The position numbers and the translations under genes are program-made. Positions 26,823 through 64,000 of a stretch of DNA of 64,000 bases are shown one piece after another; the stretch's first letter is position 1; every line of letters begins with the position of its first letter. The notes under the pieces are model-generated. The model saw only the letters and a program-made list of their open reading frames with translations, had not been told where the DNA came from and ran no database searches. Source of the DNA: Acidobacteriota bacterium (GTDB lineage Bacteria; Acidobacteriota; UBA6911; RPQK01; JADFOI01); NCBI GenBank assembly GCA_963663035.1, contig OY760074.1:2208001-2272000 (forward strand), read 5' to 3'.

Positions 26823-27028
26823 CCGGGATTATGCATAAATTTTCGTGACGAAGTGCCGCAGGCGCCGCGATGACAAGGCGTGCGAGGGGTACCCGCAATG
26901 GGTCGGGCCCCGCAGGCGTACTCATGCAGTACGCCGAGGAGCCCAAGGGGTACCCGCTTGCGGGTCGCACAACGCAGTCAGCGGGGATGATTGCGGCACT
27001 GCAGTAGAAAATCTATGCATTATCCCGG
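26823..27028 (+). mobile_element. MITE family 1 (IS1380-like ends), copy A
   Basis: 22-bp TIR CCGGGATTATGCATAAATTTTC / GAAAATCTATGCATTATCCCGG with nested internal stems. Confidence 0.85.
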
Positions 27029-28390
27029 CTTGGGGGAGAACAGGACCGAATCGTCGATTTCGTTTTCGGAGTGGGCAATGACAGCCGCTCCCATTGAATC
27101 GCTCCAAATATTGGTCATCGTCCTTGCCATATCCAAGATCCGGTCCACGCCCCAGATAAGCGAGGTGTACTCGATCGGCAGGTGGACAGCTTGCAGAATA
27201 ATGACCATCATCACCAGTCCCGCGTGAGGGATTCCGGCTGCCCCGATACTGACCGTCAGTGCAAGAAAGACAACGAGGATCTGGTTCCCCAGAGTCAGCT
27301 CGGGAAACTCCGGATGAGCGGCGGCATGGATCTGGGCGATGAACAGCACAGTCACGCATTCATAGAGGGCCGTTCCATCCATGTTCACCGTGGCACCCAA
27401 GGGCAGAACAAAGCTGGTGATGCGATCTGAGACCCCTGCCCCTTTGTTGGCCCGCTCCATGGTGACGGCCAGAGTGCCACTGCTGGAGGCGGTGGAGAAG
27501 CCGGTTAGCAGTGCAGGGCTCATGGCCCGCATGTAACGGTAAGGGTGGCGACGGGTAAGAAGCATGAGCAAGAGAGGAAGCGTCACCAGAAAATGGATCC
27601 CTAGAGCTGCGGCCACCGTCAGGACGTAGGGCAGGAGGCTGACAAAGATTTTCGGGCCACTGGTGGCAACCGTGCTAGCGATAAGAGCTGCCACTCCCAC
27701 GGGCGCCAGCGAGATGATGAATTGGGTCATCTTCATCATGACAGCGGCACCACCTTCAATGAAGGCCAACATCCCGGCCCGAGTCTCTTCCTCGATCAGC
27801 AACAAGAAAACCCCAAAGAGTACGGAAAAGAAAATAATGCCGAACATATCGAACGATGCCGCCGCTTCGACAACGTTGTCAGGAATCATGGACGCAATGA
27901 CATCCCAGAAGGAATCCGGCAGTTGTGCCTCTACTGGCTGGGTGGGTATCTGAATATCTGTCCCTCGCCCTGGACCGATAATATTCACCAGAGCCAAGCC
28001 GGTGATAATCGCGAGCAGACTGGTGCTGACATACCATGCGCCCGTCTTGATCCCAATCCGTCCCAGCCGTTTTCCTTCCTTCATCCCTACGATCCCCAAA
28101 ACAAGGGAGAAGAAAACAAGAGGAACAACAATCATCTTCAGGAGATTCATAAAGATAAGGGAAAGCCCTTCTAAACCCGCTCCGATGGGGGTCGCCACAA
28201 CCCTCCGTTTCAGCTCTTCATTGATACTTTGGGCCTTCTCCTGGAGCTGTTGGGGAGTTGCTTGAGAGTAGTCAGAGCCGAGTACCGTTTCTCGAGCCTC
28301 GTCAATGTATGCGTTGTTGATCAAAGTACCCGTGATCACACCAACCGCAATCCCCAACAAGATCCACCAGTGAAGCTTCATTTTTCCCAT
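27020..28390 (-). CDS. Dicarboxylate/amino acid:cation symporter (DAACS, GltP-like)
   Basis: FSTASSSGTL, PLGATVNMDGTAL, DRILDMARTMTN; start reassigned to MGKMKLH because the longer ORF start lies inside a MITE. Confidence 0.93.
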   Translation of the reverse strand: MGKMKLHWWILLGIAVGVITGTLINNAYIDEARETVLGSDYSQATPQQLQEKAQSINEELKRRVVATPIGAGLEGLSLIFMNLLKMIVVPLVFFSLVLGIVGMKEGKRLGRIGIKTGAWYVSTSLLAIITGLALVNIIGPGRGTDIQIPTQPVEAQLPDSFWDVIASMIPDNVVEAAASFDMFGIIFFSVLFGVFLLLIEEETRAGMLAFIEGGAAVMMKMTQFIISLAPVGVAALIASTVATSGPKIFVSLLPYVLTVAAALGIHFLVTLPLLLMLLTRRHPYRYMRAMSPALLTGFSTASSSGTLAVTMERANKGAGVSDRITSFVLPLGATVNMDGTALYECVTVLFIAQIHAAAHPEFPELTLGNQILVVFLALTVSIGAAGIPHAGLVMMVIILQAVHLPIEYTSLIWGVDRILDMARTMTNIWSDSMGAAVIAHSENEIDDSVLFSPKPG

Positions 28391-28404
28391 AACGTTGCCC
28401 CTAG

Positions 28405-28568
28405 CCCGCATTATGCATAGGTTTTCGTAGCGAAGTGGCGCAAGTGCCCCGCAGGCGTACTCGTGCAGTACGCCGAGGAGCGCAAGGGGTACCCGCTTTG
28501 CGGGTCGCACAACGCCGTCAGCGCGGATGATTGCAACACTGTAGCAGAAAATTTATGCATAATGCGAG
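28405..28568 (+). mobile_element. MITE family 1, copy B (internally deleted)
   Basis: CTAG|CCCGCATTATGCATAGG ... TTATGCATAATGCGAG|CTAA; shared core with copy A. Confidence 0.85.
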
Positions 28569-30272
28569 CTAAATGGGGTAGGACTCCAGTAGTCGTGCAG
28601 CCTCAGTGACAGCTGCATCGGAAGGGATTTCCTGAAGGAGTCTTTCCTTTCTGGAAAACAGCTCGACGATCCCCTGGCTGAACTTATTCCCCACGGTGAT
28701 GCGCACGGGTATCCCGATCAGCTCAGCATCTTTGAATTTGACGCCAGGGCGCTCCTTGCGATCATCGAGCAGGCAGTCGATTCCTTGCTGGGTAAGCTCT
28801 TCATAGTACCTTTCCGCCGCCTGCCGCTGCTCGGAATCGTCAGGACGCAGCAGCGTAATGACGGCTTGGAAAGGAGCAATATTTCGGGGCCATACCATAC
28901 CCGCATCATCGTGGTAGCTCTCCACAGCGGCCACCATGACTCTCTCCAGGCCAATCCCGTAACTTCCCATGATCATCGGAAGGTTCTTGCCTTCGCGGGT
29001 GAGGACGGTCGCACCCATGGATTTGCTGTATTTGTCCCCCAGTTTAAAAATGTGACCGATCTCCAGAGCCTTTGCCACCTTCAGTGGTTGTCCGCAGCTC
29101 AGGCATAGATCCCCAAGCTCAACCTGCCGGAGGTTGTGATAAGCCGGCTTAAAATCCCTGCCAGGGGTCACCTTTTTCAAGTGATAATCGTCCTTGTTGG
29201 CACCGCACACCAAGTTTCGGCGCCCTTCGAGTGCCCGGTCGGCAAGGATGGGAACTTCTGCCAGCCCCACCGGGCCAAGACTTCCCGGATCGGCTCCGAA
29301 CACCTCTCGGATCTCCTCAGCGGTAGCAGGACGAAAGAGGTCTGTACCCAGAGCAGCCGCCAGTTGACCCTCTCCGAGCTGGTGATCGCCTCTGAGCAAA
29401 ATCAGATGCGGCTTATCTCCCGCGATATAGACCAGTGACTTGATCTGGTGTGTTGTTGGAATTTCGAGAAAATCAGAGACTTCCCGAATCGTTTTCTGTC
29501 CAGGCGTATGGATCTCCTCGGGAGAGGCGTCACCTTCCTCATCACTCACCTCAGAGATCCGGGCAGCAGCTCGCCTCAGGTTGGCTGCATATCCACACTG
29601 GCAGGTCACCACGACGTCTTCACCCGCATCACTCTCTACCATGAACTCCTCTGACGCACTGCCGCCCATGGCTCCGGACTCGGCCTCAACGACAACATAC
29701 TCGAGCCCGCAGAGATCAAAGATGGCACGATAAGCCTGGCTGTGAAGGTTATAGCTGGCATCTAATCCTTCCGAGTCCAGATCGAAGCTGTACGAGTCCT
29801 TCATTGTGAACTGCCGGGTCCGCAAAAGACCGGACTTGGGTCGAGGTTCGTCTCTGAACTTGATCTGGATTTGATACCAGATCTGGGGAAGGTCCCGATA
29901 GGAACGAATCTCGTTGCGGGCAATGGCAGTGAATACTTCTTCATGGGTCATACCCAGGCACATCTCACGGTTCGTCCGGTCCTTCAGGCGAAACAGATTC
30001 TCACCCATATCTGTCCAGCGTCCCGTTTCCTTCCAAAGTTCAGCGGGATGCAGGGCGGGCAGATAGAATTCCTGTGCTCCGATGCGACCGAGCTCTTCTC
30101 GAATGATCTTCTCGATCTTCAAAAGGGTTCGCCGGGCCAGGGGCAGATAAGAGTAGATCCCTGCGCTCAATTGTCGGATATAGCCTGCTCGCAGCAACAG
30201 CTGGTGGGAAGGAGCTTCTGCCTCCGCAGGAACCTCTCTCAGCGTTGGAATGAAGAGCTTGGACCAGAGCAT
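28569..30272 (-). CDS. proS: Proline--tRNA ligase with INS editing domain
   Basis: SHQLLLRAG, FRDEPRPKSGLLR, EIGHIFKLG, MGSYGIGLER. Confidence 0.97.
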   Translation of the reverse strand: MLWSKLFIPTLREVPAEAEAPSHQLLLRAGYIRQLSAGIYSYLPLARRTLLKIEKIIREELGRIGAQEFYLPALHPAELWKETGRWTDMGENLFRLKDRTNREMCLGMTHEEVFTAIARNEIRSYRDLPQIWYQIQIKFRDEPRPKSGLLRTRQFTMKDSYSFDLDSEGLDASYNLHSQAYRAIFDLCGLEYVVVEAESGAMGGSASEEFMVESDAGEDVVVTCQCGYAANLRRAAARISEVSDEEGDASPEEIHTPGQKTIREVSDFLEIPTTHQIKSLVYIAGDKPHLILLRGDHQLGEGQLAAALGTDLFRPATAEEIREVFGADPGSLGPVGLAEVPILADRALEGRRNLVCGANKDDYHLKKVTPGRDFKPAYHNLRQVELGDLCLSCGQPLKVAKALEIGHIFKLGDKYSKSMGATVLTREGKNLPMIMGSYGIGLERVMVAAVESYHDDAGMVWPRNIAPFQAVITLLRPDDSEQRQAAERYYEELTQQGIDCLLDDRKERPGVKFKDAELIGIPVRITVGNKFSQGIVELFSRKERLLQEIPSDAAVTEAARLLESYPI

Positions 30273-30377
30273 CAGGGGCTACTCTTATCCGTTTGACCCG
30301 ATTGAGTCAAGTGGGCTACGATGCAACAGCAACGACCGAAAACAGTTTTCCTCACTCGAAGAAAGGGCTGACCAACG

Positions 30378-31640
30378 GTGAAAAAACCGCTACACCAAGT
30401 CGATCGGGAAATTGCTGACGCCATCCTCCTGGAAACCCGGCGGCAGACGGAGACACTCGAACTAATCGCCTCAGAAAACTTTGTCAGTGAAGCCGTACTG
30501 GAGGCCATGGGCTCAATCTTTACCAACAAATATGCTGAAGGCTATCCAGGCCGCCGCTACTACGGAGGCTGTCAGAACGTCGATATCGTTGAGAGTCTGG
30601 CCATTGAGCGTGCCAAGAAGCTCTTTGGTGCTGAGCACGCCAACGTCCAACCCCACTCCGGAAGTCAGGCCAATATGGCCGTCTACATGGCGGTCTTAGA
30701 GCCTGGCGATAAGATTTTGGGGATGAAGCTGTCCCATGGCGGACACCTCACCCACGGTCACCCTTTGAACTTCTCGGGGCAACTCTATGAGGTGGTGGGC
30801 TACGGTGTGGACCCAGAAAGTGAGCAAATCGACTACGACGCGCTTGAAGACATCGCCAAGCGGGAAAAACCCAAAATGATCATCTGTGGAGCCAGTGCTT
30901 ACAGCCGCCTGATCCACTTTGACCGCCTTTCTGAAATCGCCCAGAGGGTGGGCGCCTATCTGATGGCGGACATCGCTCACATAGCGGGCATGGTGGCCAC
31001 TGGTCTGCATCCCAGTCCTGTTCCCTATGCCGATTTCGTGACAACCACCACCCACAAGACCTTGAGAGGACCGCGTGGGGGCATGATTCTGTGCAAGGAA
31101 GAGCACCAGAAAGCCATCGACAAAATGGTCTTACCGGGAATTCAGGGCGGCCCACTGGTTCACATCATCGCCGCCAAAGCCGTCTGCTTGACAGAAGCGA
31201 TGTCCCAGGCTTTCAAAAGTTATCAAGAACAAATTATCAGCAATGCCCAGGCATTGGCTCAAGCGATCACAGAACAGGGGTTTCGAATTATTTCCGGGGG
31301 AACCGACAATCATCTCTTTTTGGTGGACGTCATCTCTCAGGGAATCACTGGAAAGCAAGCGGAGGAAGCTCTGGAAAAAGCGGCCATCACAGTCAACAAA
31401 AACGGCATCCCTTTTGACACCCATCCCCCTCTCGTCACCAGTGGAATCCGGGTGGGAACTCCAGCCGTGACGACACGCGAGATGAAAGAAGAAGAGATGT
31501 CGAAAATCGGAGAGTTGCTCAGCAGAGTCCTCAAGAACATCGACAGCCAGGAGGTCCAGCAAGAGGTCGAACAGGAAGTGAAGGCGCTGACCAATCATTT
31601 TCCACTCTACGCACAGCGATTAGAAGTTAGTGTCAGGTAA
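30378..31640 (+). CDS. glyA: Serine hydroxymethyltransferase
   Basis: [35 protein letters not shown]. Confidence 0.98.
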
Positions 31641-33588: not shown

Positions 33589-33602
33589 AAGGGAGTCAAT
33601 AT

Positions 33603-34619: not shown

Positions 34620-34666
34620 TACTCACTGAGCTAACAAGGCTCGGAGTTTCTACGCGTTTAATCTAG

Positions 34667-34870
34667 CCCGAATTATTCATAGGTTCTCGTCATGAAGCGG
34701 CGAAAGCGCCGGTCTGACAAGGCGCGCGAGGGGTACCCGCCACGGGTCGGCTCCCGCAAACGTACTCTTGAGTACGTTGAGGAGGCGAGGGGTACCCGCT
34801 TGCGGGTCGCGCAACGCTGGCGGGGCGGATGATTTAGCCGCTGCAGTAGAGAATTTGTGAATAATCCGGG
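34667..34870 (+). mobile_element. MITE family 1, copy C
   Basis: CTAG|CCCGAATTATTCATAGG ... TGTGAATAATCCGGG|CTGA. Confidence 0.88.
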
Positions 34871-34876
34871 CTGACG

Positions 34877-35738: not shown

Positions 35739-36338
35739 ATGCACAGCAAACAGTTGGTTACCGGCGCGGTCGGAATAGTGATCGGCTTTATCCTGGGATT
35801 CTTTACTTTTCAGGTTCTCGTGCAAGACCCATCAGGAGTGGGCGAACAGGGGTCTGCGACCAGCGCTTCAGCTTCCTCTCAGCTTCCAGCGGAGCATCCT
35901 CCCGAGGAAGTGATGGAAAGCCTGCGCGAACTTCAGAGCCTGGCACAAACTGATCCACAGGACAGTCAGGTCCGAATATCAATCGGAGATTCCTATTACG
36001 ATATGGGCCGCTTCGATGCAGCGATCGATTGGTATGAACAAGCCCTGCAGCTGGAACCGAACAATGTGAACGTACGGACTGATCTTGGAACCGCTTACTT
36101 GTACAGCGGCAACCCAATCAAGGCCGTGGACCGGTACAAACGATCGCTCGAAATCGAACCTGACCATGTCCAGACACTGCAGAATATTAGTGTGGCCTAC
36201 CTTTCGACCAGCAACTATGCCGAAGCGGTCGCGAATTTGGAAAAGCTGCTCGAGTTTCATCCAGACTATCCTCAGCGACAGGAAATCGAGCAGCAGATTG
36301 CGTCTATAAGAAACAACATGCAAGGAGATCCTCCTTAA
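35739..36338 (+). CDS. Membrane-anchored TPR protein
   Basis: N-terminal TM, LPAEHPP linker, three TPRs; start reassigned to MHSKQL. Confidence 0.78.
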   Translation: MHSKQLVTGAVGIVIGFILGFFTFQVLVQDPSGVGEQGSATSASASSQLPAEHPPEEVMESLRELQSLAQTDPQDSQVRISIGDSYYDMGRFDAAIDWYEQALQLEPNNVNVRTDLGTAYLYSGNPIKAVDRYKRSLEIEPDHVQTLQNISVAYLSTSNYAEAVANLEKLLEFHPDYPQRQEIEQQIASIRNNMQGDPP

Positions 36339-36608
36339 GTACTCCCTTTGAAAAATACGATGACGTTTGCGGATGGGGCTTGCGAGGCGAGGTCGCGAAG
36401 GGAGGAGGAGGCGATGCAGAGACATCGACGACGACGAGAGACAAAGAGATCGCCCGCAACCCCCATCCGCCCAAAGGGTTGGGGCGGGATGGGCCCATCT
36501 CTTTGTTGCTCCTCCTCGCCGATGTCTCGACATCGACTCGTCGTCGCGCCTCGATCTGGGCTCCGTCGCGCTCCCAACAAACGTCATCGTATTTTTGAAA
36601 GTGAGTAC
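36339..36608 (+). mobile_element. MITE family 2, copy 1 (270 bp)
   Basis: 31-bp TIR GTACTCCCTTTGAAAAATACGATGACGTTTG / CAAACGTCATCGTATTTTTGAAAGTGAGTAC flanked by TAA on both sides. Confidence 0.9.
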
Positions 36609-36613
36609 TAAAG

Positions 36614-37829: not shown

Positions 37830-37847
37830 AGCTCGCTACGCGGGCCT

Positions 37848-41876: not shown

Positions 41877-43229
41877 CTAGTCCCGCAACCGCAGCAGCCG
41901 CTCGGCGGCCGCATGCAACACATCCATGGATTTACAAAAGGCGAAACGAATAAACCGTCTGCCCATTTCGGGTCGATGATAGAAACTACTGCCCGGCACT
42001 GCGGCAACCCCGTAGGTCTTAACCAGTTGATCGACAAATCGAACGTCATCCAGATCTGTCAGTGGCGAGATGTCGACCATAATGTAGTAGGCACCAGATG
42101 GTGTCCAAACCTTGAACCCAACTTCTTGCAGCCTCCCCACCAGATAATCCCGGCGCTCTCGATATTCTGAGGCCAGCTGCTTGTAGTACTGCCGATCCGT
42201 CCCCATTGCCTTAGTACTCCCTTTCATAAATACGGTAACGTTTGCGGATGGGGCTTGCGAGGCGAAATCGCGAAGAGAGGAGGAGGCGATGCAGAGACAT
42301 CGACTCGTCGTCGCGCCTCAATCTGGGCTCCGTCGCGCTCCCAACAAACATTACCGTATTTATGAAAGTGAGTACTCATCACCAGCTTCCTGCAAAGGAG
42401 CGGCCGCTCCAACCGTCAGGAAATCATGAATCTTGCGGATGCCGTCGGTGAGATCCGGGGGCGCGATAATGTATCCAATCCGCCAGCCCGTCACACTGAA
42501 GGTCTTGGAAAGTCCGCTGATGGTGATGGTCCGGTCCCTCATCCCGGAGAAGAGTGCAAGGGGATGATGACACTGACCGTCATAAACAATGTGCTCATAG
42601 ATCTCATCGGTAATGACGTAAAAATCGTAAGTCTTGGCAAGTGCAGACAGCTGTCCAAGTTCCTCCCGGAAAAACACCTTTCCTGAAGGATTGTTTGGAG
42701 TATTGAGTATCAGGGCACGGATCCCCCCCTGGGACTGGGCCTCTTGAATCTTCTTTTCGAGTTCCTGAAAGTCGAAGGTCCAATCGCGATCCGGGTCAAG
42801 GGCAACATAGAGGGGTGAAGCACCGGCAATGATGGCATCGGGACCATAGTTTTCATAAAAGGGCTCAAAGACAAGCACTTGATCTCCAGGATTGACCAGC
42901 GCCAGAATCGAAGAAATCATGCACTCGGTCGCACCACAGGCCACCGTGACTTCTCTTTCAGGGTCAATCTCCCAGTCATAGAATTCCCTGTACTTTTCAG
43001 CAATTGCCTGCCGGAGTCCAGCGGCACCCCAGGTAATGGCGTACTGGTTAATATCGTCTTGAATCGCCTGGCAAGCAGCGCTCTTAATCTCCTGAGGCGC
43101 TGGGAAATTAGGGAATCCTTGAGCCAGATTAATGGCATCATATTGCATCGCAAAACGCGTCATTTCTCGAATGACAGATTCGGTAAAGTGGGTGACCTTC
43201 TGGCTGGTCCGATGGGGTGACGTCGGCAT
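41877..43229 (-). pseudogene. Class I/II PLP aminotransferase interrupted by a MITE
   Basis: INLAQGFP, NTPNNPSGK, DEIYEH, SKTFSVTGWRIG upstream of the insert; GAYY...RFAFCK downstream in the same frame. Confidence 0.9.
42214..42375 (+). mobile_element. MITE family 2, copy 2 (162 bp)
   Basis: TTA|GTACTCCCTTTCATAAATACGGTAACGTTTG ... CAAACATTACCGTATTTATGAAAGTGAGTAC|TCA. Confidence 0.9.
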
Positions 43230-47154: not shown

Positions 47155-47163
47155 AAGGGGTAG

Positions 47164-47401
47164 CCCGCATTGCTCACACCAGCTCGTGGCGAAGCGGCGG
47201 AAGGGCTGGAAAACAGAGCCGTGGGCTTTAGCCCACGGGCCCGCAGGCTAAAGCCTGCGGCTCCGACTGGCGCGCGAGGGGTACCCGCAAACGTACTCTT
47301 GAGTACGTTGAGGAGCCGAGGGGTACCCGCTTGCGGGTCGCGCAACACAGTCAGGTCGGCTCATTGCGCCGATGCAGTAGAGCAGGTGTGAGAAGTGCGG
47401 G
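47164..47401 (+). mobile_element. MITE family 1, copy D, carrying a REP-A pair (47214-47267)
   Basis: CCCGCATTGCTCACACCAGCTC / GAGCAGGTGTGAGAAGTGCGGG ends with the family core. Confidence 0.82.
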
Positions 47402-47402
47402 C

Positions 47403-48599
47403 TCAGAGACTCACCGCCGAGGTCGACGCATTGTAACACTCGGTTGCAGCCTCCACCCCGGCTCCCTGGGCGCAGTGAAAGCCCTGCCTGCGCAAGCAGG
47501 TCTCCAGAGCGAAAAGAAAGTAGAGCACATTCTGAGCCTGGCTGTTCTCCCCCATCAACCCCACTCGCCAAACCTTCCCCTTCAAGTCACCCAGACCTCC
47601 GCCGATTTCCAGATTGAACTGGCTCAGCAGCTCACTTCGAACTTTCCCATCATCCACACCGGCAGGGATGCACACCGTATTCAACGACCACAGACGATAT
47701 TCGGGGTCTACGTGCATCTGCAACCCCAGTCCCTCGAATCCCGCCACCAGAGCTGTGTGATTTTGCCGGTGGCGATCGAAGCGTTCCTCCAGTCCCTCTT
47801 CCACAATGATCTTCAGCGCTTCACACAAGGCATAATTCATCGAGATGGGTGCCGTGTGATGGTACGCCCGCTCCTCACCCCAATAGGACCGGAGGAGGTT
47901 AAAGTCCAGGTACCAGCTTCTGCATGGGCTGGTGCGGGTTTTCAACTTCGCTTCAGCCTTGGGAGAAAGGGTAATGGGCGCAAGTCCAGGAGGACAGCTC
48001 AAGCACTTTTGAGTCCCGCTGTAACAAATATCGATACCCCAGGAATCGACTTCGACGGGGTGTCCTCCCAGAGAGGTCACGGCATCCACCAGCAGCAGTG
48101 AATCGAGGCTGTTACAAATTTCCCGGATGGGCTCCAAAGGTTGGAGGACTCCGGTGGAGGTTTCAGCATGCACGACGGCTATGATGCTCGGTTGGCACTT
48201 CTGGGCGGCCTCAAGCATGGCTTTCCCGCCGAGAGGCTCACCAAAGGGAGCGGAAACCACCGTGCAGTCACCGCCATTCCGGCGGACCATCTCTGCGATC
48301 CGCTGCCCGAAAACCCCGTTGACACCAACCAGGACAGACTCTCCCTCCTCAACAAAATTGGCGACTGAGGCCTCCATCCCAGCAGTTCCAGTTCCTGACA
48401 GTGGAATGGTGAAAGGGTTGCCGGTTTGAAAGACGCGCCGCAGAAGGTCCTGAATTGTATTCATGATCTCCACGAACTCGGGATCGAGATGACCGACCAG
48501 CGGCCGGCTCATGGCTCGAAGGACCCGAGACGGCACATTTGATGGCCCCGGTCCCATCAACAACCTTCCTTCTTTGCCCTTCTGTGTCAGTCTCTTCAT
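47403..48599 (-). CDS. Alanine--glyoxylate / serine--pyruvate aminotransferase (class V)
   Basis: [34 protein letters not shown]; start at MKRLTQ. Confidence 0.93.
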
Positions 48600-49091: not shown

Positions 49092-49181
49092 TACCTCCAC
49101 CCGTCCCTTTTCGGTGGCCGGGTCGTCATTTCCAGACTTTTCGTAGGCTGCCATCCATTGCTTTGCGTTTTCCAGACAGGC

Positions 49182-49416
49182 CCGTGGGCTAAAGCCCACG
49201 GCTCTGACTGATCCTCGTTACCTCCTATCAGAGCCGCAGGCTTTAGCCTGCGGGCCAGCTCAGCACTAGCCGTTCTGTGAACGGCTCCGCTGCTACGGCA
49301 AGGCCGTACTTTCGGGCCGCTCACAGAGCGGCCGCTACAATTTCGCGGCCTGAGGCCGCTCCCACATTCTCCCAGCCGCAAGGAGCGGAAGGTGGGAGCC
49401 GCCTCAGTGCGGCGAA
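49182..49416. repeat. Mosaic REP cluster
   Basis: REP-A pair (49182-49208, 49228-49253), GTAG-footed hairpin (49315-49339, minus), GTGG-footed pair (49343-49366 minus, 49392-49416 plus). Confidence 0.8.
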
Positions 49417-54486: not shown

Positions 54487-54493
54487 AAAGACG

Positions 54494-54694: not shown

Positions 54695-54788
54695 TGACCT
54701 GCCCCCACGAACGAGTCCACCCTCTATGCTAGACCCGGGACCATTTGAAGTCCACTCCAAGGGATTGGATCCAGTGCCTGCGACCTAG

Positions 54789-56427
54789 CCCGGATTATTC
54801 ATAAATTCTGAAGAAGGGGTCTGATCGAGGGCACAAAAAGATGCCGTACCTCTTTGATATAAAAGGGGTTATGAAACAACTCCAAACCAAAAAGGTACGG
54901 CCCAGCGATGCATCAGTCTGCCAGATCAACTTGCCATCTCACCCTGACAGAAAAGTGGTGGCTCGATTCGATGGAGGCCGGCTCTCCTCCGATGCCGGGC
55001 TGCTGTGTCTGTACGCCCTGGATCAACAGCACGGACTGACGGCTGGCTTTGCCTCCTGCCTGAAGGACGCTCGAGATAGCCGCTACGTCCGCCACCAGAT
55101 TCGCGAACTGCTCACCCAGCGCAGCTTTCAGATCGTGGCCGGCTATGAGGACTGCAACGATGCCGACAGCTTGCGCTCGGATCCCATCTTCAAGACCGTG
55201 TGTGATCGGCTGCCGGAAAGCGATCCGGATCTGGCTTCTCAACCCACGCTGTCGCGACTGGAGAACTCGGTGGACTCGAAGGATCTCACTCGCCTGGGAC
55301 AGTGGCTGCTGGAGACCTACTTGAAGCACCGCAAGAAGAGCCGGCCCGAGAAGATCATCCTGGACATCGACAGCACGGATGACGTCACGCATGGGCAGCA
55401 GGAGTTCAGCTTTTACCACGGCTATTATCGCGAGCACATGTATCATCCGCTGCTGCTATTCGATGGCGAGACGGGCGATCTGGTATGTGCGCTACTGCGG
55501 CCCGGCAACCAGGGGGCGGCCGCCCACGCGGTGGCGGTTCTCAAACGGGTGGTGGCCCGGATGCGCCAGGTTCTGGGATCCGATGTTCCGATCGAAGTGC
55601 GAGCCGACAGTGGCTTTGCGACGCCGGCACTGTACGAGTTCTGTGAGGAGGAAAAACTGCAGTATGTGGTGGGCTTTGCCCGCAACTCCCGGCTGGCGGC
55701 CACCGTCGAGCCCTTGGTTGAGCAGGTGCAAGCAGACTATGACGACTCAGGAGAAAAGCAACGCCAGTTCACCGAGCTCGTCTATCAGGCCGACAGTTGG
55801 GACCGGGAGCGGCGCATGGTGGCCAAGGTGGAAGTGAGCGAGCGCGGGTTCAACCGTCGCTTTGTGGTCACCAACCGCCAGGATCTCACGGCCGGGCAGC
55901 TGTATGACCACTACATCGGACGGGGCCAGTGCGAGAACTTCGTGAAAGCTTTCAAAAAAGATCTGGCCATGGATCGCTTGAGCTGCCACCGTTTCCTGGC
56001 CAACCAGTTCCGACTCTTCATCCACGCCCTGGCCTATGTCTTAATCCTGCGCCTGCGGGATTACCTGTGCGGGACTCCCTGGCACAACCTGGAGATTGAG
56101 ACGCTCCGCCGCCGCCTGTTCAAAATCGGTGCCCGGGTTCGGGAAACTTCTCGTCGCATCTGGGTGCACCTGGCATCGTCTTATCCCGAACAAAAGCTCT
56201 TCGCATTACTGATGCACCGTCTGTGTCCCACCTGACGGTCCCCTGACTCCCTGCGCCAACACAGATATACAGCCCCCTGCGGGCCGAGCTGTTTCCGGAA
56301 GGGGCTCTCGCTTCATCTCTATTCGGCTCAACAAGCTTGGACGCCTTGTAATCGCACCTGAACACACTCTCAGCCCTGAACTTCCGCAGAAAATCGACAC
56401 TCACCCCAAACTTATGAATAATTGCGG
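54789..56427 (+). mobile_element. IS1380-family insertion sequence with CTAG target duplication
   Basis: CTAG|CCCGGATTATTCATAA ... TTATGAATAATTGCGG|CTAG. Confidence 0.93.
54841..56235 (+). CDS. IS1380-family DDE transposase
   Basis: FDGGRLSSDAG, GYEDCND, LASQPTLSRLEN, LDIDSTDD, RADSGF, RGQCENFVK. Confidence 0.93.
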   Translation: MPYLFDIKGVMKQLQTKKVRPSDASVCQINLPSHPDRKVVARFDGGRLSSDAGLLCLYALDQQHGLTAGFASCLKDARDSRYVRHQIRELLTQRSFQIVAGYEDCNDADSLRSDPIFKTVCDRLPESDPDLASQPTLSRLENSVDSKDLTRLGQWLLETYLKHRKKSRPEKIILDIDSTDDVTHGQQEFSFYHGYYREHMYHPLLLFDGETGDLVCALLRPGNQGAAAHAVAVLKRVVARMRQVLGSDVPIEVRADSGFATPALYEFCEEEKLQYVVGFARNSRLAATVEPLVEQVQADYDDSGEKQRQFTELVYQADSWDRERRMVAKVEVSERGFNRRFVVTNRQDLTAGQLYDHYIGRGQCENFVKAFKKDLAMDRLSCHRFLANQFRLFIHALAYVLILRLRDYLCGTPWHNLEIETLRRRLFKIGARVRETSRRIWVHLASSYPEQKLFALLMHRLCPT

Positions 56428-57272
56428 CTAGGTAGTTTGGCCTCTGGCGCCGGCGGCCGATAGGCCAAGGCGCTGTGAGGCCGGATCTGATTGTAATCCC
56501 TCCGCCAGCGTTCTACCAACACCTTGGCTTCCCCCAGCGTGTCGAAGATCTCCATGTTCAGCAGCTCATCCCGTAGTTTCCCGTTGAAACTCTCAATGTA
56601 CCCATTCTCCCAGGGGCTGCCCGGCTCGATGTACAAGGTCCTTACCCCAACAGCCTGCAGCCAGTCCCGGACCGCCTGTGCCGTAAACTCCGATCCGTTA
56701 TCGGACCGGATAAACTCAGGCACTCCCCGATCAACGAATAACTCCGCCAGCCGGTCCAACACGTCTTGGCGATTCATCTGCCGTTTCACATCAATGGCGA
56801 GGCACTCTCTGGTGTACTCATCCAGGATCGTCAATAGCCGAAAGGCTCGCCCATCATGGGTCCGTTCATGCACGAAATCATAGCTCCAGACGTGGTTCTT
56901 GCGAGCCGCTCGTAACCGAACACAGGAACCGTCATTAAGCCACAGCCTCCTTCGTTTCGGCTGTCTGGACGGGACTTTCAGCCCTTCTTGTCTCCACAGC
57001 CTCTCCACCCGCTTAGGATTCACCTTCCACCCTTCCCCATGAAGTATCGCCGTGACCCGCCGGTAGCCATAACGCCCGTATTGCGTAGCCAACTCCACCA
57101 TCCGGGCCACCAATCGGGCCTCATCATCGGGAATTTGCCTTTCCCTTCGCTGGGTCGATCGAACCTGTCCCAGCACTTGGCAGGCCCGACGTTCGGAGAC
57201 TCGCTCTGCTCCTAATCGCTCTCGTACCCACATCACCGCTCGTCTCCTGTTCGCCGGGTCTAGAAGTTTCCC
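56412..57272 (-). CDS. IS3 OrfB (rve integrase-like DDE), C-terminus replaced by the IS1380 insertion
   Basis: [41 protein letters not shown]. Confidence 0.92.
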
Positions 57273-57538: not shown

Positions 57539-57604
57539 CCTTGCCTCCTTCCTAAACCGGAAATCCTAACATTCAAACTGGACTCGTTTTAGGGGGCAAG
57601 GTCA

Positions 57605-58309
57605 GAGGACACTGCGCCCCAGAGAACGTCCACTAGCCAAGCCGTCCACCCAGGCCACTGAGTAGGTATAGTCCTGGTCCTCCTCTTCCAACAATCGCAT
57701 GGTTTCATCCAGGTTCGGAGTGCGCTGATACTGGACGCGAATGAAGGCTGTCTCAATGGGACGTAACTGTAAGCTGACGCTTAGAATCATTCCCGTGAGT
57801 CCCATACCGCCCACGGTTGCCCAAAAAAGATCGGAGTTTTCCTCTCTGGAGAGACGAACCTGCTGGCCATTGGCCTGCAATAGCTCCAAGTCGAGAAGAA
57901 AATTGGAAAGCGACCCGTCCTGGTGATGATTCTTTCCGTGAACATCACAGGCAACCGCGCCCCCGATGGTGACAAATTTGGTGCCGGGGGTCACGGGTAG
58001 GAACCATCCCCGGGGTACGAAGATTTTCAGGATCTCCTCTAGCGTCACGCCAGCTTCACAGCTCAACACGCCGGTGTCTGGCTCGAAGCTCAAAAAGCGA
58101 TTGATCCGCTCGGTGAGGACAACACCACAATCTCGGTTCAGAGCAGCATCGCCGTAGCTTCTCCCCAAACCACGTCCAATGTAGTTGGTTTCTTTTCGAC
58201 TCTGAAGAACAGCTGCGATGGCACTCACCGTCTCCGGTCGATAGATGTGGCCGCGGCTACTCCGAAAGCATCCCCAGCCGCTGAGTTCTTGGTCGACAAA
58301 CTTGTCCAT
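57605..58309 (-). pseudogene. DprE1-like FAD oxidoreductase, truncated by IS3
   Basis: SGWG, RGLGRSYGDAA, PVTPGTKFVTIGG, DVHGKNHH, YSVAWVD; frame ends at the IS end after about 235 aa. Confidence 0.88.
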
Positions 58310-58399
58310 GGGAGACGGCGGGCCTGATTCTATCAAACTCCCTACGACTGTTTGCGCACCTCTCAAACACAAATCCACCCATGTTTCGCTGCAACTATT

Positions 58400-59224
58400 T
58401 CATTCGATGGCGAGGATCCGGGACCCGTTGGCCCACAGAATCTTGTGCTTGGCTTCCTCACTGAGAGTGAGATTCCTGAATGTCTCCAGGTTGTTGCCGA
58501 TATCGGCGTCCGGCCAATCGCTGCCGAAAAGCACCTTGTCCGAGAGACGCTCCAGATCTGGCCAATAGTCCAGCAGACGCTGAGGAGGCAGACCCGAAAC
58601 ATCGAAGTACACGTTCTTGTGAAGGCGCACCAGCGCAGCTGCTCGATCGTACCAAAGCATTCGTCCACCATGGCACATGATGATGGTCAGGTCGGGAAAG
58701 TCCACCGCCACATCGTCCCAGAAAAGTGGATCGCCGTACTTGATCCGCGAACCTGCGAAGACCGAGCTGCCGGTGTGAGCCATCACCGGGATTCCCAGCT
58801 CCTGCGCCTTGGCATACAGGGGATAGAGCATGGGCTGGTTCGGGTAGAAGTACTGGTAAGTCGGGTACAGCTTCAGGCCCCGGAACCCTTGTTCCTGGAT
58901 CGCCACATCCAAGCCCTTTGCGGGATTGAGCACCATGTACGGATTGAAGGTGCAGAAGGGAATCAACCGGCCATTGCTGGCCGCCGTAAACTTCTGGACG
59001 TAGTCGTTCGGAATCACCGCGGAAGTAATGACCGCTGTTTCGGCCAATACCACGGCATGATCGACACCTGCTTCATCCAGGAGAGCCAGGAAATTCTCAG
59101 GATGAGAATAGGATTCTAGAAACTCGTCCAAGCCTCCTTCTCGGTGGGAACTCAAAAATGCTCTGTACTCGGGCGGCATGTTGGGGTCGGGACGAACCGC
59201 GTGGGTGTGAAAATCCAGAATCAT
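58400..59224 (-). CDS. Amidohydrolase family 2 protein
   Basis: DFHTH, GLKLYP, HTG, CHGG, FGSDWP. Confidence 0.9.
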   Translation of the reverse strand: MILDFHTHAVRPDPNMPPEYRAFLSSHREGGLDEFLESYSHPENFLALLDEAGVDHAVVLAETAVITSAVIPNDYVQKFTAASNGRLIPFCTFNPYMVLNPAKGLDVAIQEQGFRGLKLYPTYQYFYPNQPMLYPLYAKAQELGIPVMAHTGSSVFAGSRIKYGDPLFWDDVAVDFPDLTIIMCHGGRMLWYDRAAALVRLHKNVYFDVSGLPPQRLLDYWPDLERLSDKVLFGSDWPDADIGNNLETFRNLTLSEEAKHKILWANGSRILAIE

Positions 59225-59308
59225 AATCGAGGCGATTGTAATGGGGGGGAGAAAGAGCGTCAACTAACCGCTGACAAGACCTGGAGCCTGAATTCCGGGC
59301 TCGGTGCG

Positions 59309-59337
59309 TTGACACCCGAACCTTCCTACTCTACATT
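59309..59337 (+). promoter_or_regulatory. Sigma70-type promoter of the CoA ligase
   Basis: TTGACA-N17-TACATT, followed by an AAGGAGG RBS. Confidence 0.65.
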
Positions 59338-59380
59338 CTTTCTAGAATCTGTATGCTCGCTATTTTAAGGAGGATTGATA

Positions 59381-60943
59381 ATGAATGAGGTTGCGGAGCT
59401 CTCCATCCCTGAGAGGATCAATATGGCTTACCAGGCCTGTGATCAGTGGGCTGAGGGTCCTGATTGCGAGAATCTCGCGATGATCCTGGACGACCAAAAG
59501 ATCACCTGGAGCGAACTTCGGGACTCAGTCAACCGAATAGGAAATGCCCTGTTGGGACTGGATATTCAGAAGGGCGATCGAGTCATGCTGAGATCTCAAA
59601 ACTGCCTGGAACTGCACTACGCCATCCTCGCCTGCATGAAGATAGGAGCTGTACCGGTTCCAACCAGCAGTTTGTTTGGTGCCAAGGAGGTCCAACATAT
59701 TCTCAATGACACCCAGGCGGTAGCCGCCATTGTACACTCTGAAAGTCTCGCAGTCTTTGATCAGGTTGAAAGCGAGCTTCTCAAGCACTTGATAGTCATC
59801 GGTGAGAGCAGCGATCAAGGCACTTCTCTGGCAGAGATGATCAAGGATGCTTCCACAGAGCTCAAATGTGAGGACACCAAGAGCAGCGACGAAGCCTTTA
59901 TGCTTTACACCTCAGGTACAACCTCTGTCCCAAAAGGCATTGTCCACGCCCATCGCTGGTTAATCGCCACCGGCGAACCGATTGCGAAAGTTGAAATGGA
60001 GCTGAAACCTGGAGATGTGACGCTGTCAGTCGCTGAGGTCAACTGGATGTATCCGTTTGGTTGCAATTTCTTCTACCCTCTCTACTGCGGTGCAACCGCG
60101 GGCCTTTATCAGGGAAGATTCGACCCGGAGAGGACTTTCGGCTACATAGAAAAATATGGGGCCACACATTTCATTGGCAATCCCACAGTTTTCAAACGAA
60201 TGCTGCTGGTAGAGGAAGCGGAAAAGCGGTGGGACTGCTCCTCCCTGAAGATGGGCTTGAGTTCTGGAGAAACACTGCCTCCTTACGTATTCAAGACCTG
60301 GAAGTCTCACTTTGACTGCGAGATCTATGATTCGATGGGTCAAACAGAGATCCACATCTTTTGTTGCACGAGACCCGGGGTAGTCAAGCTCAGCACCATG
60401 GGGAAGCCTTTTGCCGGAGTCCCGCCTGTGGCTGTACTGGATAAGGATGGAAGCGAAGTTCCAAGCGGTGAAGTGGGGTATCTTGCCATCAGAGGAGACC
60501 ACCCCGGCCTGGCTCTGAGATATGAAAATCAAGAAGAAATCTGGAAATCCAGATTCCAGAAAGGTTGGTACCTCACCGGTGATATGTCGTACATCGATGA
60601 GGAGGGTTTCTTCTGGTTTGTCTCGAGGTCTGATGATCTGATCAAGAGTAGGGGCTACCTGATTAGTCCAAAAGAAGTCGAGGACACCCTGCAGGAACAC
60701 AATGCTGTGCTGGAAGCAGCGGTAGTGGGAAAGAAAGATCAGATTTTAGGCCAGCTCGTGAAGGCCTTCATTGTCCTTCGACCCGACCACAGTCCCTCGG
60801 AAGAACTGGGAGAAGAGCTCCGCCAGATGACTCGCAAATTGATCGCCCCCTATAAGGTTCCGAAGGAAATCGAGTTCATCGATTCATTTCCCAAAACTGT
60901 CACGGGAAAGATTATCAGGAGAGACCTGAGAGACAAGGAGTAA
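59381..60943 (+). CDS. Acyl-CoA synthetase (benzoate-CoA ligase / medium-chain type)
   Basis: YTSGTTSVPKG, GQTE, YLTGD, RSDDLIKSRGY, PKTVTGKI. Confidence 0.9.
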   Translation: MNEVAELSIPERINMAYQACDQWAEGPDCENLAMILDDQKITWSELRDSVNRIGNALLGLDIQKGDRVMLRSQNCLELHYAILACMKIGAVPVPTSSLFGAKEVQHILNDTQAVAAIVHSESLAVFDQVESELLKHLIVIGESSDQGTSLAEMIKDASTELKCEDTKSSDEAFMLYTSGTTSVPKGIVHAHRWLIATGEPIAKVEMELKPGDVTLSVAEVNWMYPFGCNFFYPLYCGATAGLYQGRFDPERTFGYIEKYGATHFIGNPTVFKRMLLVEEAEKRWDCSSLKMGLSSGETLPPYVFKTWKSHFDCEIYDSMGQTEIHIFCCTRPGVVKLSTMGKPFAGVPPVAVLDKDGSEVPSGEVGYLAIRGDHPGLALRYENQEEIWKSRFQKGWYLTGDMSYIDEEGFFWFVSRSDDLIKSRGYLISPKEVEDTLQEHNAVLEAAVVGKKDQILGQLVKAFIVLRPDHSPSEELGEELRQMTRKLIAPYKVPKEIEFIDSFPKTVTGKIIRRDLRDKE

Positions 60944-60949
60944 TGAAAG

Positions 60950-61094
60950 CCCGAACGATGCATAGGTTTTCGTAACGAGGCGCCGAAAGCGCCGTCCTGA
61001 CCAGGCGCGCGAGGGGTACCCGCTTGCGGGTCGCGCAACGCAGTCAGGGCGGATGATTAGGGAGCCACAGTAGAAAATCTATGCATCGTCCGGG
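60950..61094 (+). mobile_element. MITE family 1, copy E (short)
   Basis: CCCGAACGATGCATAGGTTTTC / GAAAATCTATGCATCGTCCGGG. Confidence 0.85.
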
Positions 61095-61106
61095 CTAAGC
61101 CGCATC

Positions 61107-61496
61107 TCAGCCGGGGATCGAGTGGAGTGAGCAGTAAACACTTCCGCCCTCCACCCTGAAGCGGCCACCGTCAGGACAAGGCAGGATGGTAATGCCGTCG
61201 TTTTCCAGATCCTCGAGGGTCGGTTCTTTGCCCGGATGGGTGATGCTCCAGGTCATCAAGGCACGTTCGAGGGCCTGACGGTTCATCTGGCAAGCCATTT
61301 CCTGCCCGGCACTTTTCACCACGGTGCCGGTCTTGATCGTCTGCGTCACCCCGAACTGGTCGCTATAGCCGAAGTACAAAAGCCCGACAATCGCCAAGGC
61401 CACCAAGATAGAAATGAAGCTGAAACCTCGCTGGGACTCCACCTTGGTTTTCACTTTCACAAAAGGATTTACCACACATTTATTGTAACATTTCAA
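61107..61496 (-). CDS. Type IV pilin/pseudopilin-like protein; start uncertain
   Basis: QRG|FSFISILVALAIVGLL prepilin site; C-terminal CPDGG...CSLH. Confidence 0.7.
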   Translation of the reverse strand: MKCYNKCVVNPFVKVKTKVESQRGFSFISILVALAIVGLLYFGYSDQFGVTQTIKTGTVVKSAGQEMACQMNRQALERALMTWSITHPGKEPTLEDLENDGITILPCPDGGRFRVEGGSVYCSLHSIPG

Positions 61497-61559
61497 CTCC
61501 GTGCTCAGTCCTTGAGAGAGGCTGAAATCTTGGGATCTAATGGGAACTACCGAGGAATA

Positions 61560-61586
61560 GTCAGAGCCGTGGGCTTTAGCCCACGG
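61560..61586 (+). repeat. Single REP-A hairpin
   Basis: GTCAGAGCCGTGGGCTTTAGCCCACGG. Confidence 0.85.
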
Positions 61587-61602
61587 GGCAGTCAGCCCCT
61601 CA

Positions 61603-61983
61603 CTACCATTTGTCAGCGTACTCGGAAATCACGGGAATCGTCAGCCGTTCCCCTTGGAGCGCCTTGACGATGGCGAAGAGGTGAAAGAAGAAAATAATCA
61701 ACAAGAGAAAAGGAGAGAAGCCAAAGCCGATGATGAGTCCAAGACCTGGCAGGACAGAGATGACTGCCAGAGCCACAAAGAGAGCCAGCCAGCTCAAGGT
61801 CAAAACGAGTCCGTGCTTGGCATGCCACTGTACCTCAGCATCATCTGGTTCCACCAAAAGTGGAATCAGGGCTAAAAATCCCATGTAAGCTAAAATCAAG
61901 AGCGCCGCCTGATTCAAAGGTTTCTGCTGAGGTAGCGGCGGTGAACTCTTCTGCTCTTCGGGGGCCTCAGGTGTGTCTTTCAT
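61603..61983 (-). CDS. DUF4870/Tic20-like small membrane protein
   Basis: LAYMGFLALIPL, VQWHAKHGL, KALQGERLTIPVI; start at MKDTPE. Confidence 0.8.
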   Translation of the reverse strand: MKDTPEAPEEQKSSPPLPQQKPLNQAALLILAYMGFLALIPLLVEPDDAEVQWHAKHGLVLTLSWLALFVALAVISVLPGLGLIIGFGFSPFLLLIIFFFHLFAIVKALQGERLTIPVISEYADKW

Positions 61984-62050
61984 CGTATCTACTGGTAGCC
62001 TAGCGAAAGCCCGCAAATCCGTCAATTCAGAGACGGAAGAAGCAGCGTCC

Positions 62051-62080
62051 TTGACCCCCTTTTCATCTCCAAGATACAAT
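62051..62080 (+). promoter_or_regulatory. Sigma70-type promoter candidate
   Basis: TTGACC-N18-TACAAT upstream of an AGGAG RBS and the ATG at 62138. Confidence 0.45.
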
Positions 62081-62137
62081 CCCCTGGCCACCATGAGTGG
62101 TTTTGTCTCAAGTCTTCCGCCGAAAAGGAGAACCACA

Positions 62138-63844
62138 ATGAAAAAGGTTGTCTGGACCGCGCCCCTTGCTCTTCTTCTCTCTGCCCTGTCGTGCAGCCCG
62201 GCTTCGGCTCCCAGCGACTCCCCCTCTGATTCAGCCCGTGTCATCGAGGTGGAGTTCCCGGGAGACCGTGGGCGGAGCGAAGAGCGCAACCCGGAGTACG
62301 AGGCCAAGTGGGACGAGTTTTACACAAGCCCACACGACAGCGGGGACACCCTGGTGATTGGCACCATCGGTGACGCTGACTCCTTACACCCGCTGACTTT
62401 GGCGACAAGGGGCGCCGATCGGATCACGGGTCTTTTGTTTCTGGGCCTGACCAGAACAAATCCGGACTTTTCCCACGCTCCCTCGCTGGCAAAGTCGTGG
62501 GAGTTCTCAGAAGACCATCTGGAACTTACCTTTCACCTGCGGGACGATGTTTTCTGGCATGACGGGGAAAAGACTACCGCTCACGACGTCAAGTTCGGCT
62601 TCGAAAAGGCTCGGAATCCTAAAATTGGTTGGTCCGCCATCAAATGGCTGCAATTCATCAAGGAGTGTCAGGTCATAGACGATTACACCGTCAAGTTCAT
62701 CTTCGAGCAGATTTATCCCTACCAACTGATGGATGCTGTTGTGGCTCCCGTCCTGCCCAAGCATATTCTGGACAGGGTGCCGGACGAGGAAATGATCAAC
62801 ACCGAGTTTAACCGCGATCCTGTGGGCAACGGACCCTTCCGCTTTAAGGAGTGGAAGCCACAGCAGTATATCGAGGTGGAGGCCAACCAGGATTTCTATG
62901 CCGGCCGGCCCCCGCTTGACCGCATTATCTTCAAAGTAGTTCCCGACCAGGAGAATCTTGTCATCCAACTCAAAAGCGGTGAGATCGACTTTATGGAGAG
63001 AGTGCCGCCCCGTTTCTTTACGGAACTCTCTCGACAGGTAGATCTGGTGGCACACACCTATTTCGGCCGCGCTTACAGCTACGTTGGCTGGAACCTCCGC
63101 AATCCTCTCTTCCAGAGCAAGAAGGTGCGGCAGGCTCTGACCATGGCCATCAACCGCCAGGAAATCATCGACTCCCTCCTCCTGGAGTTCGGTCAGATCC
63201 CTACAGGTCCAGTGCTGCCCATCATCTGGGCACACAACCCGAATCTGCCCGATTTCCCCTACGACCCGGAAAAGGCCAGGCGATACCTGGGGGAAGAAGG
63301 GTGGAGGGACACGGATGGGGACGGCTGGCTGGACAAGAACGGCAAGCGCTTTTCCTTCACTTTGAAGACCAACAAGGGCAATCAGATCCGTGAGGACATC
63401 CTGATTTTTCTTCAAGACATGTTCAAGGAGGTGGGGATCGAAGTCACACCCAACATCCTGGAGTGGACCGTATTCAGTGGGGACTTGGAAAAGAAGAACT
63501 TCGAAGCTGCCGTAGCAGGCTGGAGCGTCGCGCTCAAAATGGATATGACCACCATCTGGCACTCCAATTCCATTGACGACAAATTCAACTTCGTCTCCTA
63601 TTCCAACCCCGAATTTGACCAACTCAACGACGCCGCAATCTTTGAGAGTGACGCTGAGAAGGCCAAGGAGATGTGGTGGCGAATCCAGGAGATGATTGCC
63701 GAGGATCAACCCTACACTTTTCTCTATATGCCCAAGGACATCAATTTTGTCCACAAGCGCTTCCAAAATGTCCAGATGGAAGCGGTGGGATGGAGTTACA
63801 ACCTGAATCAGTGGTGGGCTCCCAAGGATCAGCAAAAGTACTGA
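62138..63844 (+). CDS. Peptide ABC transporter substrate-binding lipoprotein (SBP family 5)
   Basis: Lipobox-like ALSC, LAKSWE, WHDGEKTTAHDVKF, PVGNGPF, VRQALTMAINR. Confidence 0.93.
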   Translation: MKKVVWTAPLALLLSALSCSPASAPSDSPSDSARVIEVEFPGDRGRSEERNPEYEAKWDEFYTSPHDSGDTLVIGTIGDADSLHPLTLATRGADRITGLLFLGLTRTNPDFSHAPSLAKSWEFSEDHLELTFHLRDDVFWHDGEKTTAHDVKFGFEKARNPKIGWSAIKWLQFIKECQVIDDYTVKFIFEQIYPYQLMDAVVAPVLPKHILDRVPDEEMINTEFNRDPVGNGPFRFKEWKPQQYIEVEANQDFYAGRPPLDRIIFKVVPDQENLVIQLKSGEIDFMERVPPRFFTELSRQVDLVAHTYFGRAYSYVGWNLRNPLFQSKKVRQALTMAINRQEIIDSLLLEFGQIPTGPVLPIIWAHNPNLPDFPYDPEKARRYLGEEGWRDTDGDGWLDKNGKRFSFTLKTNKGNQIREDILIFLQDMFKEVGIEVTPNILEWTVFSGDLEKKNFEAAVAGWSVALKMDMTTIWHSNSIDDKFNFVSYSNPEFDQLNDAAIFESDAEKAKEMWWRIQEMIAEDQPYTFLYMPKDINFVHKRFQNVQMEAVGWSYNLNQWWAPKDQQKY

Positions 63845-63915
63845 AGTTCTCCGGCTCAATCTCCTGAAAAACCGAGGGCAGCGGATTTTGCCGTTCGGAG
63901 AGAGTTTGGAATATG

Positions 63916-64000
63916 CCCGGAGTATGCATAGGTTCTCGTCATGAAGCGGCGAAAGCGCCGGCCTGACAAGGCGCGCGACGGAAGCCCCCGCAAACGTACT
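63916..64000 (+). mobile_element. MITE family 1, copy F (runs off the window)
   Basis: CCCGGAGTATGCATAGGTTCTCGTCATGAAGCGGCGAAAGCGCCGG, close to copy C. Confidence 0.85.

Follow-up and report, generated by a model that had tools for sequence, protein, structure and literature searches.

Miniature inverted-repeat transposable elements (MITEs) are short, non-coding sequences that are dispersed in many copies, carry terminal inverted repeats like those of an insertion sequence (IS) and are polymorphic for presence or absence at orthologous sites, and these general features were used here for a comparison with the IS1380 family. ERIC/IRU, Correia (NEMIS) and BOX repeats, which have other sequences and occur in other hosts, are imperfect intergenic palindromes of 100-200 nucleotides (nt) that fold as hairpins, BOX being modular; we know of no core shared across phyla for any of them. 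The window analyzed in this work, 64,000 nt in full, comprises positions 2208001-2272000 of the single-contig genome (3.59 Mb, 54% G+C, 96.6% complete) of an Acidobacteriota bacterium (GenBank assembly GCA_963663035.1, contig OY760074.1), and contains six repeats (copies A to F) together with a resident IS1380-family element. Judged from their sequence, the six repeats are non-autonomous MITEs and not the undescribed structured non-coding system proposed in a preliminary description of the window, a proposal that found no support: the ends match the resident IS1380-family element and the insertion sites differ between congeneric genomes. Taken jointly, a family of ~194 IS1380-type MITEs, mobilized in trans and keeping a rod fold in the propagating lineage, is regarded as probable.

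The copies share with IS-derived MITEs a small, non-coding, many-copy character, terminal repeats matching the resident IS at 18-20 of 22 positions, CTAG-like flanks, insertion sites that vary between related genomes and a preference for gene 3' ends. They differ from such MITEs in that both arms resemble the left end of the IS, complementarity runs over the whole length, covariation occurs where the ends of the IS differ, and no clean target duplication is seen. In the account of the REPIN/RAYT system by Bertels and Rainey 2011 (PMC3116915), the mobile unit is a hairpin of two inverted halves with compensatory changes on both sides, constant short words stand beside variable stems, and selection works at the level of the replicating unit rather than of a host function; the present elements are alike in each of these respects. 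They differ from REPINs in having no RAYT accompanied by repeats, in their DDE-type IS1380 ends and in being modular and 150-260 nt long. Two inverted REP-like halves with compensatory changes were found here, which is a resemblance in working and not membership.

All six repeats previously reported at 26823, 28405, 34667, 47164, 60950 and 63916 were located at those positions on the + strand; these coordinates mark the first C of the CCC/CCG end, while copies are bounded here from the conserved AG to the conserved CT. In window coordinates, the copies and the IS are:

26821-27030, + strand: copy A, 210 nt, of the ~212-nt class (backbone plus 62-nt hairpin module), with ends of the CCGGG...CCCGG type.
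28403-28570, + strand: copy B, 168 nt, with ends CCCGC...GCGAG, 2 nt off the start codon of a transporter-like open reading frame (ORF) on the minus strand.
34665-34872, + strand: copy C, 208 nt, with left end CCCGAATTATTCATAGGTTCT, which comes nearest, among copies in the window, to the left inverted repeat of the IS.
47162-47403, + strand: copy D, 242 nt, of the second end type (CCCGCATTGCTCACACC...GGTGTGAGAAGTGCGGG), with a nested palindrome of a 77-nt family at ~47216-47266.
60948-61096, + strand: copy E, 149 nt, the bare backbone of outer 24-bp stem, inner stems and apical core.
63914-64000, + strand: copy F, truncated where the window stops; in the genome it measures ~181 nt and extends to window-equivalent position 64093.
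54789-56427, + strand: IS1380-family insertion sequence of 1639 bp; the transposase frame spans 54961-56181.

A BLAST search of the genome with the six copies as queries returned 194 copies of at least 120 nt (lengths 120-460 nt), the short, non-coding and dispersed many-copy pattern of a MITE. These fall into discrete size classes of ~150 nt (54 copies), 180 nt (14), 200 nt (42), 212 nt (54), 260 nt (23) and other lengths (7). The classes are set apart by a 62-nt unit (a 41-nt hairpin plus a second apical core) and by the nested 77-nt palindrome, and to that extent the earlier claim that copies gain and lose whole modules stands: classes from ~150 to 260 nt differ by entire modules. Alignment of 193 copies on a 159-column backbone gave nine subfamilies with 4 to 62 copies each, diverging by ~5-6% from their own consensus. 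The family was matched in 24 of 40 relatives (these 40, also used for the tally of IS1380 transposases below, include one unpublished genome, G017). For annotation, the label of IS1380-type MITE rather than candidate RNA gene can be given to the ~190 intergenic hairpins of this genome and to many others in related Acidobacteriota. Two MITE copies abut directly at genome positions 2928448-2928908, outside the window (…GCGGGCA followed by AGCCCGCG…), the second as if inserted into the CTAG-like flank of the first; a candidate empty paralogous site within other repeats, the sole match of its kind, was rejected as an artefact of two abutting copies at 2928378-2928908.

The genome carries ~30 near-identical copies of the IS1380-family element (385-400 bits, cut-off 180), the ends of which read CTAG, then CCCGGATTATTCATAAATTCTG...GCGG, then CTAG. 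The window copy lies between CTAG at 54785-54788 and CTAG at 56428-56431, having entered a CTAG of a second multi-copy IS that continues onward to ~56882. Because that host IS reads through a single CTAG at 47 of 47 matches listed and the window insertion is flanked by it twice, the IS1380-family element duplicates CTAG (4 bp) on insertion. By our reading of the IS ends against the subfamily consensuses, agreement between the MITE arms and the opening 22 nt of the IS left repeat is 18/22 positions (left arm) and 20/22 positions (right arm, reverse-complemented), so that both arms resemble the left end of the IS, and the main end type has the IS-like terminal inverted repeats of a MITE. In this reading, the shell of the element consists of two inverted copies of the IS1380-family left end, AG-CCC...GGG-CT, placed in CTAG-like sites; within it lie the inner stems, the unpaired words that are conserved and the 22-nt apical hairpin, which is invariant, with the 62-nt hairpin unit and the 77-nt palindrome as optional parts. 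Given the identity of the ends and the nature of the target, mobilization in trans by a transposase of the IS1380 type is most likely. Among titles and abstract openings retrieved by a literature search joining IS1380 and MITE, no IS1380-derived MITE is described.

Presence/absence polymorphism was found at the orthologous sites of copies A and B in congeneric genomes. Site A is empty in three of four aligned relatives (G004, G003 and G001) and site B in four of five (G004, G003, G005 and G006), and one relative has a family member at a different point of the same gap; intergenic DNA was too diverged for the empty-site junctions to be readable at base level in these relatives. Convergent gaps hold 54 of 161 intergenic copies against a background of 19% (p=1e-5), and divergent gaps hold 17 of 161, fewer than background (p=0.005). 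With crude ORF calls, the flanking ORFs lie at a median of 9-11 nt from the copies.

Each of the nine subfamily consensuses folds as a rod with about -77 to -98 kcal/mol (RNA parameters). The preliminary description had proposed nested stems in which paired positions change together, a switch of paired sequence in the apical hairpin and steadier unpaired words, and all three were borne out. Comparison of the consensuses identified at least two Watson-Crick pair types at 9 pairs of the outer 24-bp stem and 7 of the inner stems, some pairs showing two or three types. Pair counts were made on an alignment of 25 hand-picked copies (window copy E, 20 of the 54 copies of ~150 nt and 4 copies from relatives) and compared with shuffles, both sets of figures taking no account of kinship among copies: 95.2% of cells pair vs 87.2% in shuffles, and both-sided change occurs in 27 of 59 pairs vs 12.8 +/- 2.2, a number reached in 0 of 500 shuffles. 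The number of both-sided pairs drops to 5-12 when partners are slid by 1-3 columns. Inner helices contain 12 of the 27 both-sided pairs, and the 6-bp core hairpin contains none among the 25 copies. In the module hairpin, the pair states are AA/TT in 41 copies, GG/CC in 37 and GA/TC in 9, with mismatches in 6 of 93. Divergence within subfamilies is 2.1% for the unpaired word TCGT, 2.5% for GGATGATT and 2.8% for GCAGTAG vs 5.4-6.3% for the terminal stems, the words and core having about half the variability of those stems. RNAalifold run over all 193 copies returned a partial structure because the subfamilies differ, and the consensus fold of the largest subfamily was used in its place, a choice that favors the forward strand and G.U pairs. 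With RNA parameters, 186 of 193 copies fold better as the forward than as the reverse strand (-108.4 vs -97.8 kcal/mol), and with DNA parameters 184 of 193 do so (-59.3 vs -53.6 kcal/mol).

Where the constraint acts was judged from the IS ends and from the distribution of private and shared changes. The ends of the IS are unlike each other at 6 of 22 positions (3, 4, 5, 17, 20 and 21); at positions 3-5 the MITE arms are complementary and switch jointly (CG in 118 copies and GC in 61; CG in 81 and GC in 71). Since the arms are complementary where the IS ends differ and the inner stems also covary, more than fit to the transposase is reflected in the pairing. Changes private to a single copy, with the partner unchanged, are evenly spread (terminal stems 1.20%, inner stems 1.39%, words 1.29%, core 1.01%; chi-square p=0.35), whereas shared changes are unequal across stems, words and core (p=5e-13) and fewest in the core; this contrast indicates that pairing, words and core matter to the propagating lineage and not to the host at each locus. 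Of the G.T pairs produced by new transitions, 74 are on the forward strand and 60 on the reverse (p=0.26), a balance that argues against selection on RNA at each locus. Resident copies decay neutrally after insertion. The earlier argument that a passively decaying MITE would not keep pairing while changing sequence holds, in that the fold is kept as the sequence changes and passive decay is insufficient.

Source elements with complementary arms and intact words and core would be those that leave descendants, and pairing itself, not fit to the transposase or a host function, seems to matter to the propagating lineage. Complementarity might matter because the element passes through a single-stranded foldback stage as it propagates or survives; such a stage, which is narrowly favored, is suggested by the strand-asymmetric fold and by the replichore bias given below. 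Arm complementarity beyond what the parent IS tolerates and the neutral decay of resident copies, two things commonly confounded, can be told apart in this family.

All six window copies lie on one strand, while the genes around them differ in direction (crude ORF calls), and the preliminary description had drawn attention to this co-orientation. It is correct locally; genome-wide, 98 copies lie on the + strand and 96 on the - strand. Nor is orientation tied to gene direction, copies in tandem contexts pointing with the genes in 46 cases and against them in 44. The orientation was compared between replichores, as had been advised, with the origin at ~3.20 Mb and the terminus at ~1.22 Mb by our reading of the GC skew. 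One replichore carries 62 + and 42 - copies and the other 36 + and 54 -, placing 116 of 194 forward strands on the inferred leading-strand template (116 vs 78, p=0.008). Given this bias, six of six copies on one strand has a probability of ~0.05. The ~30 IS1380 copies, by our own tally, have no obvious replichore bias.

Several results weigh against an IS1380-type MITE family with a selected fold. Among 114 copies with precise bounds, just 11 have CTAG on both sides; inner AG and CT survive in ~90% of copies and the outer bases far less often, the outer left C and T in 53-55%, the outer right A in 74% and G in 33% (A 46%). No copy-specific direct repeat exceeded permuted pairs at any offset for lengths 2-5, and no pairing beyond AG/CT into the flanks was detected. 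The inner two bases may travel with the element and the outer two may come from a CTAR-like target. Site B, where the right CTAA looks ancestral and the left reads CTAG, fits such a target, as does an IS copy with TAAG/CTAG flanks, but IS copies with CTAA/CTAA and CTAG/TTAG flanks do not. The second end type (48 copies) is unlike the IS repeat at 6 of 17 positions (11/17 alike), and no IS-sized element with ends of this type was found in this genome. Co-occurrence is weak among the 40 relatives: 14 have MITE and IS, 10 the MITE only, 8 the IS only and 8 neither, the transposase being scored at E<=1e-20 and most assemblies being fragmented, but G005 consisting of 10 contigs. The forward-strand fold asymmetry may be inherited from one ancestor, and the replichore bias is modest. 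We know of no single-stranded stage for DDE transposases of the IS1380 family.

The alternative closest to this reading leaves the element a MITE and takes the coupled changes as a product of neutral arm-to-arm copying, in which template switching or mismatch repair acts on the hairpin and the fold is unselected; the earlier suggestion of intrastrand conversion is of this kind. Coupled changes at the tips of the tree are indeed in excess of independent hits. Among pair states private to one copy of a subfamily, 53 are Watson-Crick doubles, 9 broken doubles and 229 singles, and among double states unique in the genome, 14 are Watson-Crick and 4 broken, against a chance expectation that we estimate at ~1 Watson-Crick double (private rate ~1.5%). 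Transversions are about as frequent in the doubles as in the singles (28/53 vs 95/229), and the doubles pile up in the long unbroken outer helix (45 vs 8 in inner stems), both as copying would have it. Efficient repair, however, would clear G.T pairs, and these last in 102-118 copies at two outer-helix positions; 229 private single mismatches likewise stay unrepaired, and 32 of the 45 outer-helix doubles are also seen in other subfamilies and may be lineages left unresolved. Copying also leaves the conservation of unpaired words and core among lineages unexplained. The excess of coupled doubles fits the conversion idea, then, and the persistent G.T pairs and unrepaired singles count against efficient copying, which we consider a possible but doubtful account of the coupling. 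Transversions occur in 10 of the 14 genome-unique doubles, which is at odds with passage through wobble pairs and counts against an RNA-level explanation; the spectrum of these doubles fits arm copying or selection on a DNA hairpin.

Two further rival readings were weighed. In one, the repeats would be REPIN-like single-stranded hairpins mobilized by a RAYT/IS200-like Y1 (HUH) transposase, with the IS1380-like ends as a relic of origin. GTAG within the conserved unpaired GCAGTAG, the forward-strand fold asymmetry, the replichore bias and the presence of one IS200-like and one weak RAYT-like gene in the genome all speak for it. Yet GTAG occurs on just one arm, the RAYT-like gene scores 43.6 bits (cut-off 80), and around the two Y1 genes no hairpin repeats were found within 1.5 kb, no inverted repeats of at least 14 nt adjoin them and the core 14-mer is absent from their loci; a RAYT gene flanked by its own REP sequences was not found in this genome. 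With 18-20 of 22 end positions in agreement with the left repeat of IS1380 and with flanks that are CTAG-like as in the IS, movement by a Y1 enzyme is improbable. The other reading holds that the copies are transcribed as structured RNA serving the host, as 3'-end stabilizers, processing sites or small RNAs, with the fold selected locus by locus. The folds are stable (mean -108 kcal/mol, RNA parameters) and more so on the forward strand in 186 of 193 copies, the unpaired words are conserved, and copies are enriched at gene 3' ends. Against this, orientation relative to flanking genes is random (46 vs 44), stems, words and core have no shortage of private mutations (p=0.35), forward-strand G.U is not commoner than reverse-strand G.U (74 vs 60, p=0.26), transversions in 10 of 14 genome-unique doubles bypass any wobble path, and insertion sites are not conserved between species. 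A search of the 64-kb window against Rfam 15, one of the checks advised earlier, gave 0 matches at the gathering score, and no family was matched even at E up to 10, where the best matches of copy A (mir-92, E=1.3; a CRISPR repeat, E=8.7) lie far under their cut-offs. Three metatranscriptome runs of one study contain short contigs 5-10 differences off family members, without ends, strand or level, alongside error-free contigs of neighboring genes, and DNA carry-over may contribute to both. We hold a host-level RNA function to be very improbable, and an IS1380-type MITE family remains the preferred reading.

The apical core of these MITEs is found well beyond the phylum. In the window it lies at:

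61013-61034, + strand: apical 22-nt core of copy E, GGGGTACCCGCTTGCGGGTCGC (GGGGT-ACCCGC-TT-GCGGGT-CGC).
26947-26968, 34789-34810 and 47320-47341, + strand: the same core in copies A, C and D, respectively.

The core is identical in nine of nine subfamily consensuses, and 165 of 166 genome matches to its 18-nt center (at most 1 mismatch) lie inside MITEs. An exact scan of species-representative genomes located the verbatim core at at least 86 places; the first 80 matches listed come from about 29 assemblies (by hand count of accession prefixes) and at least eight phylum-level groups. Among the matches listed are Acidobacteriota, planctomycetes (Planctomycetia, Gemmataceae, Thermoguttaceae and Tepidisphaeraceae), Chloroflexota (Dehalococcoidia, Thermomicrobiales and Chloroflexia), Syntrophus, Syntrophorhabdales, a 'delta proteobacterium', Armatimonadota, Saccharibacteria and Thermosynechococcaceae. 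Five non-acidobacterial genomes have 212, 56, 38, 12 and 25 copies of the 18-mer (at most 1 mismatch) and 0 of the reversed pattern, and no IS1380 transposase above the cut-off was found in these five. The flanks of the core vary, consisting of REP-like arms GTAGGCCGGAACAAGCTT... (GTAG...CTAC) in one planctomycete, of GTCAT...ATCTGG in Chloroflexota and of unrelated, G+C-rich sequence in one Gemmataceae genome. No enzyme could be tied to the core: RAYT-like genes occur in three of the five genomes and small GIY-YIG genes in both Chloroflexota genomes; the core 14-mer is absent from the 12 enzyme loci fetched and from both Y1 loci of the present genome. An ungapped helix of at least 5 bp beside the core was present at 38 of 78 loci vs 30.2 in permutations of the flanks (maximum 41), a difference short of significance, with single loci at 10, 11 and 29 bp. 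The core had 0 matches in viral contigs and copy E had 0 among the plasmids of PLSDB, and searches for the sequence of the core or its complement in paper texts found 0. Tentatively, and as a rather unlikely possibility, the core would be a portable cis-element taken up by different hairpin-type mobile elements. If so, it might engage conserved machinery on folded single strands or nucleate the foldback, as a shared 'handle' of selfish hairpin DNA, and a real shared module would indicate that hairpin-type selfish elements have some factor or physical requirement in common.

The core was also compared with the Ssn/SRM system as set out by Chenal et al. 2025 (PMC11893778). In the core, CCCGC-TT-GCGGG is similar to the NTS hairpin CCCGCG-loop-GCGGG, the 22-mer of Chloroflexota stands between GTCAT and ATCTGG like the NTS flanks, and each of the two Chloroflexota genomes has several small GIY-YIG genes. 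The difference is that the core lacks the GTCWY head of the SRM pattern published there, as compared by eye, and the core 14-mer occurs in 0 of 6 GIY-YIG loci fetched. For the present genome a link to Ssn was rejected: the sole GIY-YIG match lies in a 663-residue frame, taken as UvrC, and no small GIY-YIG (cd10448) gene was found.

Other repeats are present in the window. The 77-nt palindromic family occurs at 8968-9045, 49179-49256 and 61519-61587 and is composed of two hairpins, of the GGGCTTTAGCCC / GGCTAAAGCC type; across the genome it has 191 half-site matches, and it stands alone or nested in the 200- and 260-nt MITE classes. A third MITE-like palindromic family, at 36338-36609 and 42213-42376, has ends AGTACTC..TTTGAAAAATACGATGACGTTTG and 33 end-like matches in the genome, and its relatives are found at site A in G005 and within a MITE in G001. 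Positions 3189-8302 hold three direct repeats at spacings of 2016 and 2027 nt, with 61-79% identity and with internal repeats spaced 204 and 306 nt, which look like tandem paralogous repeat-protein genes.

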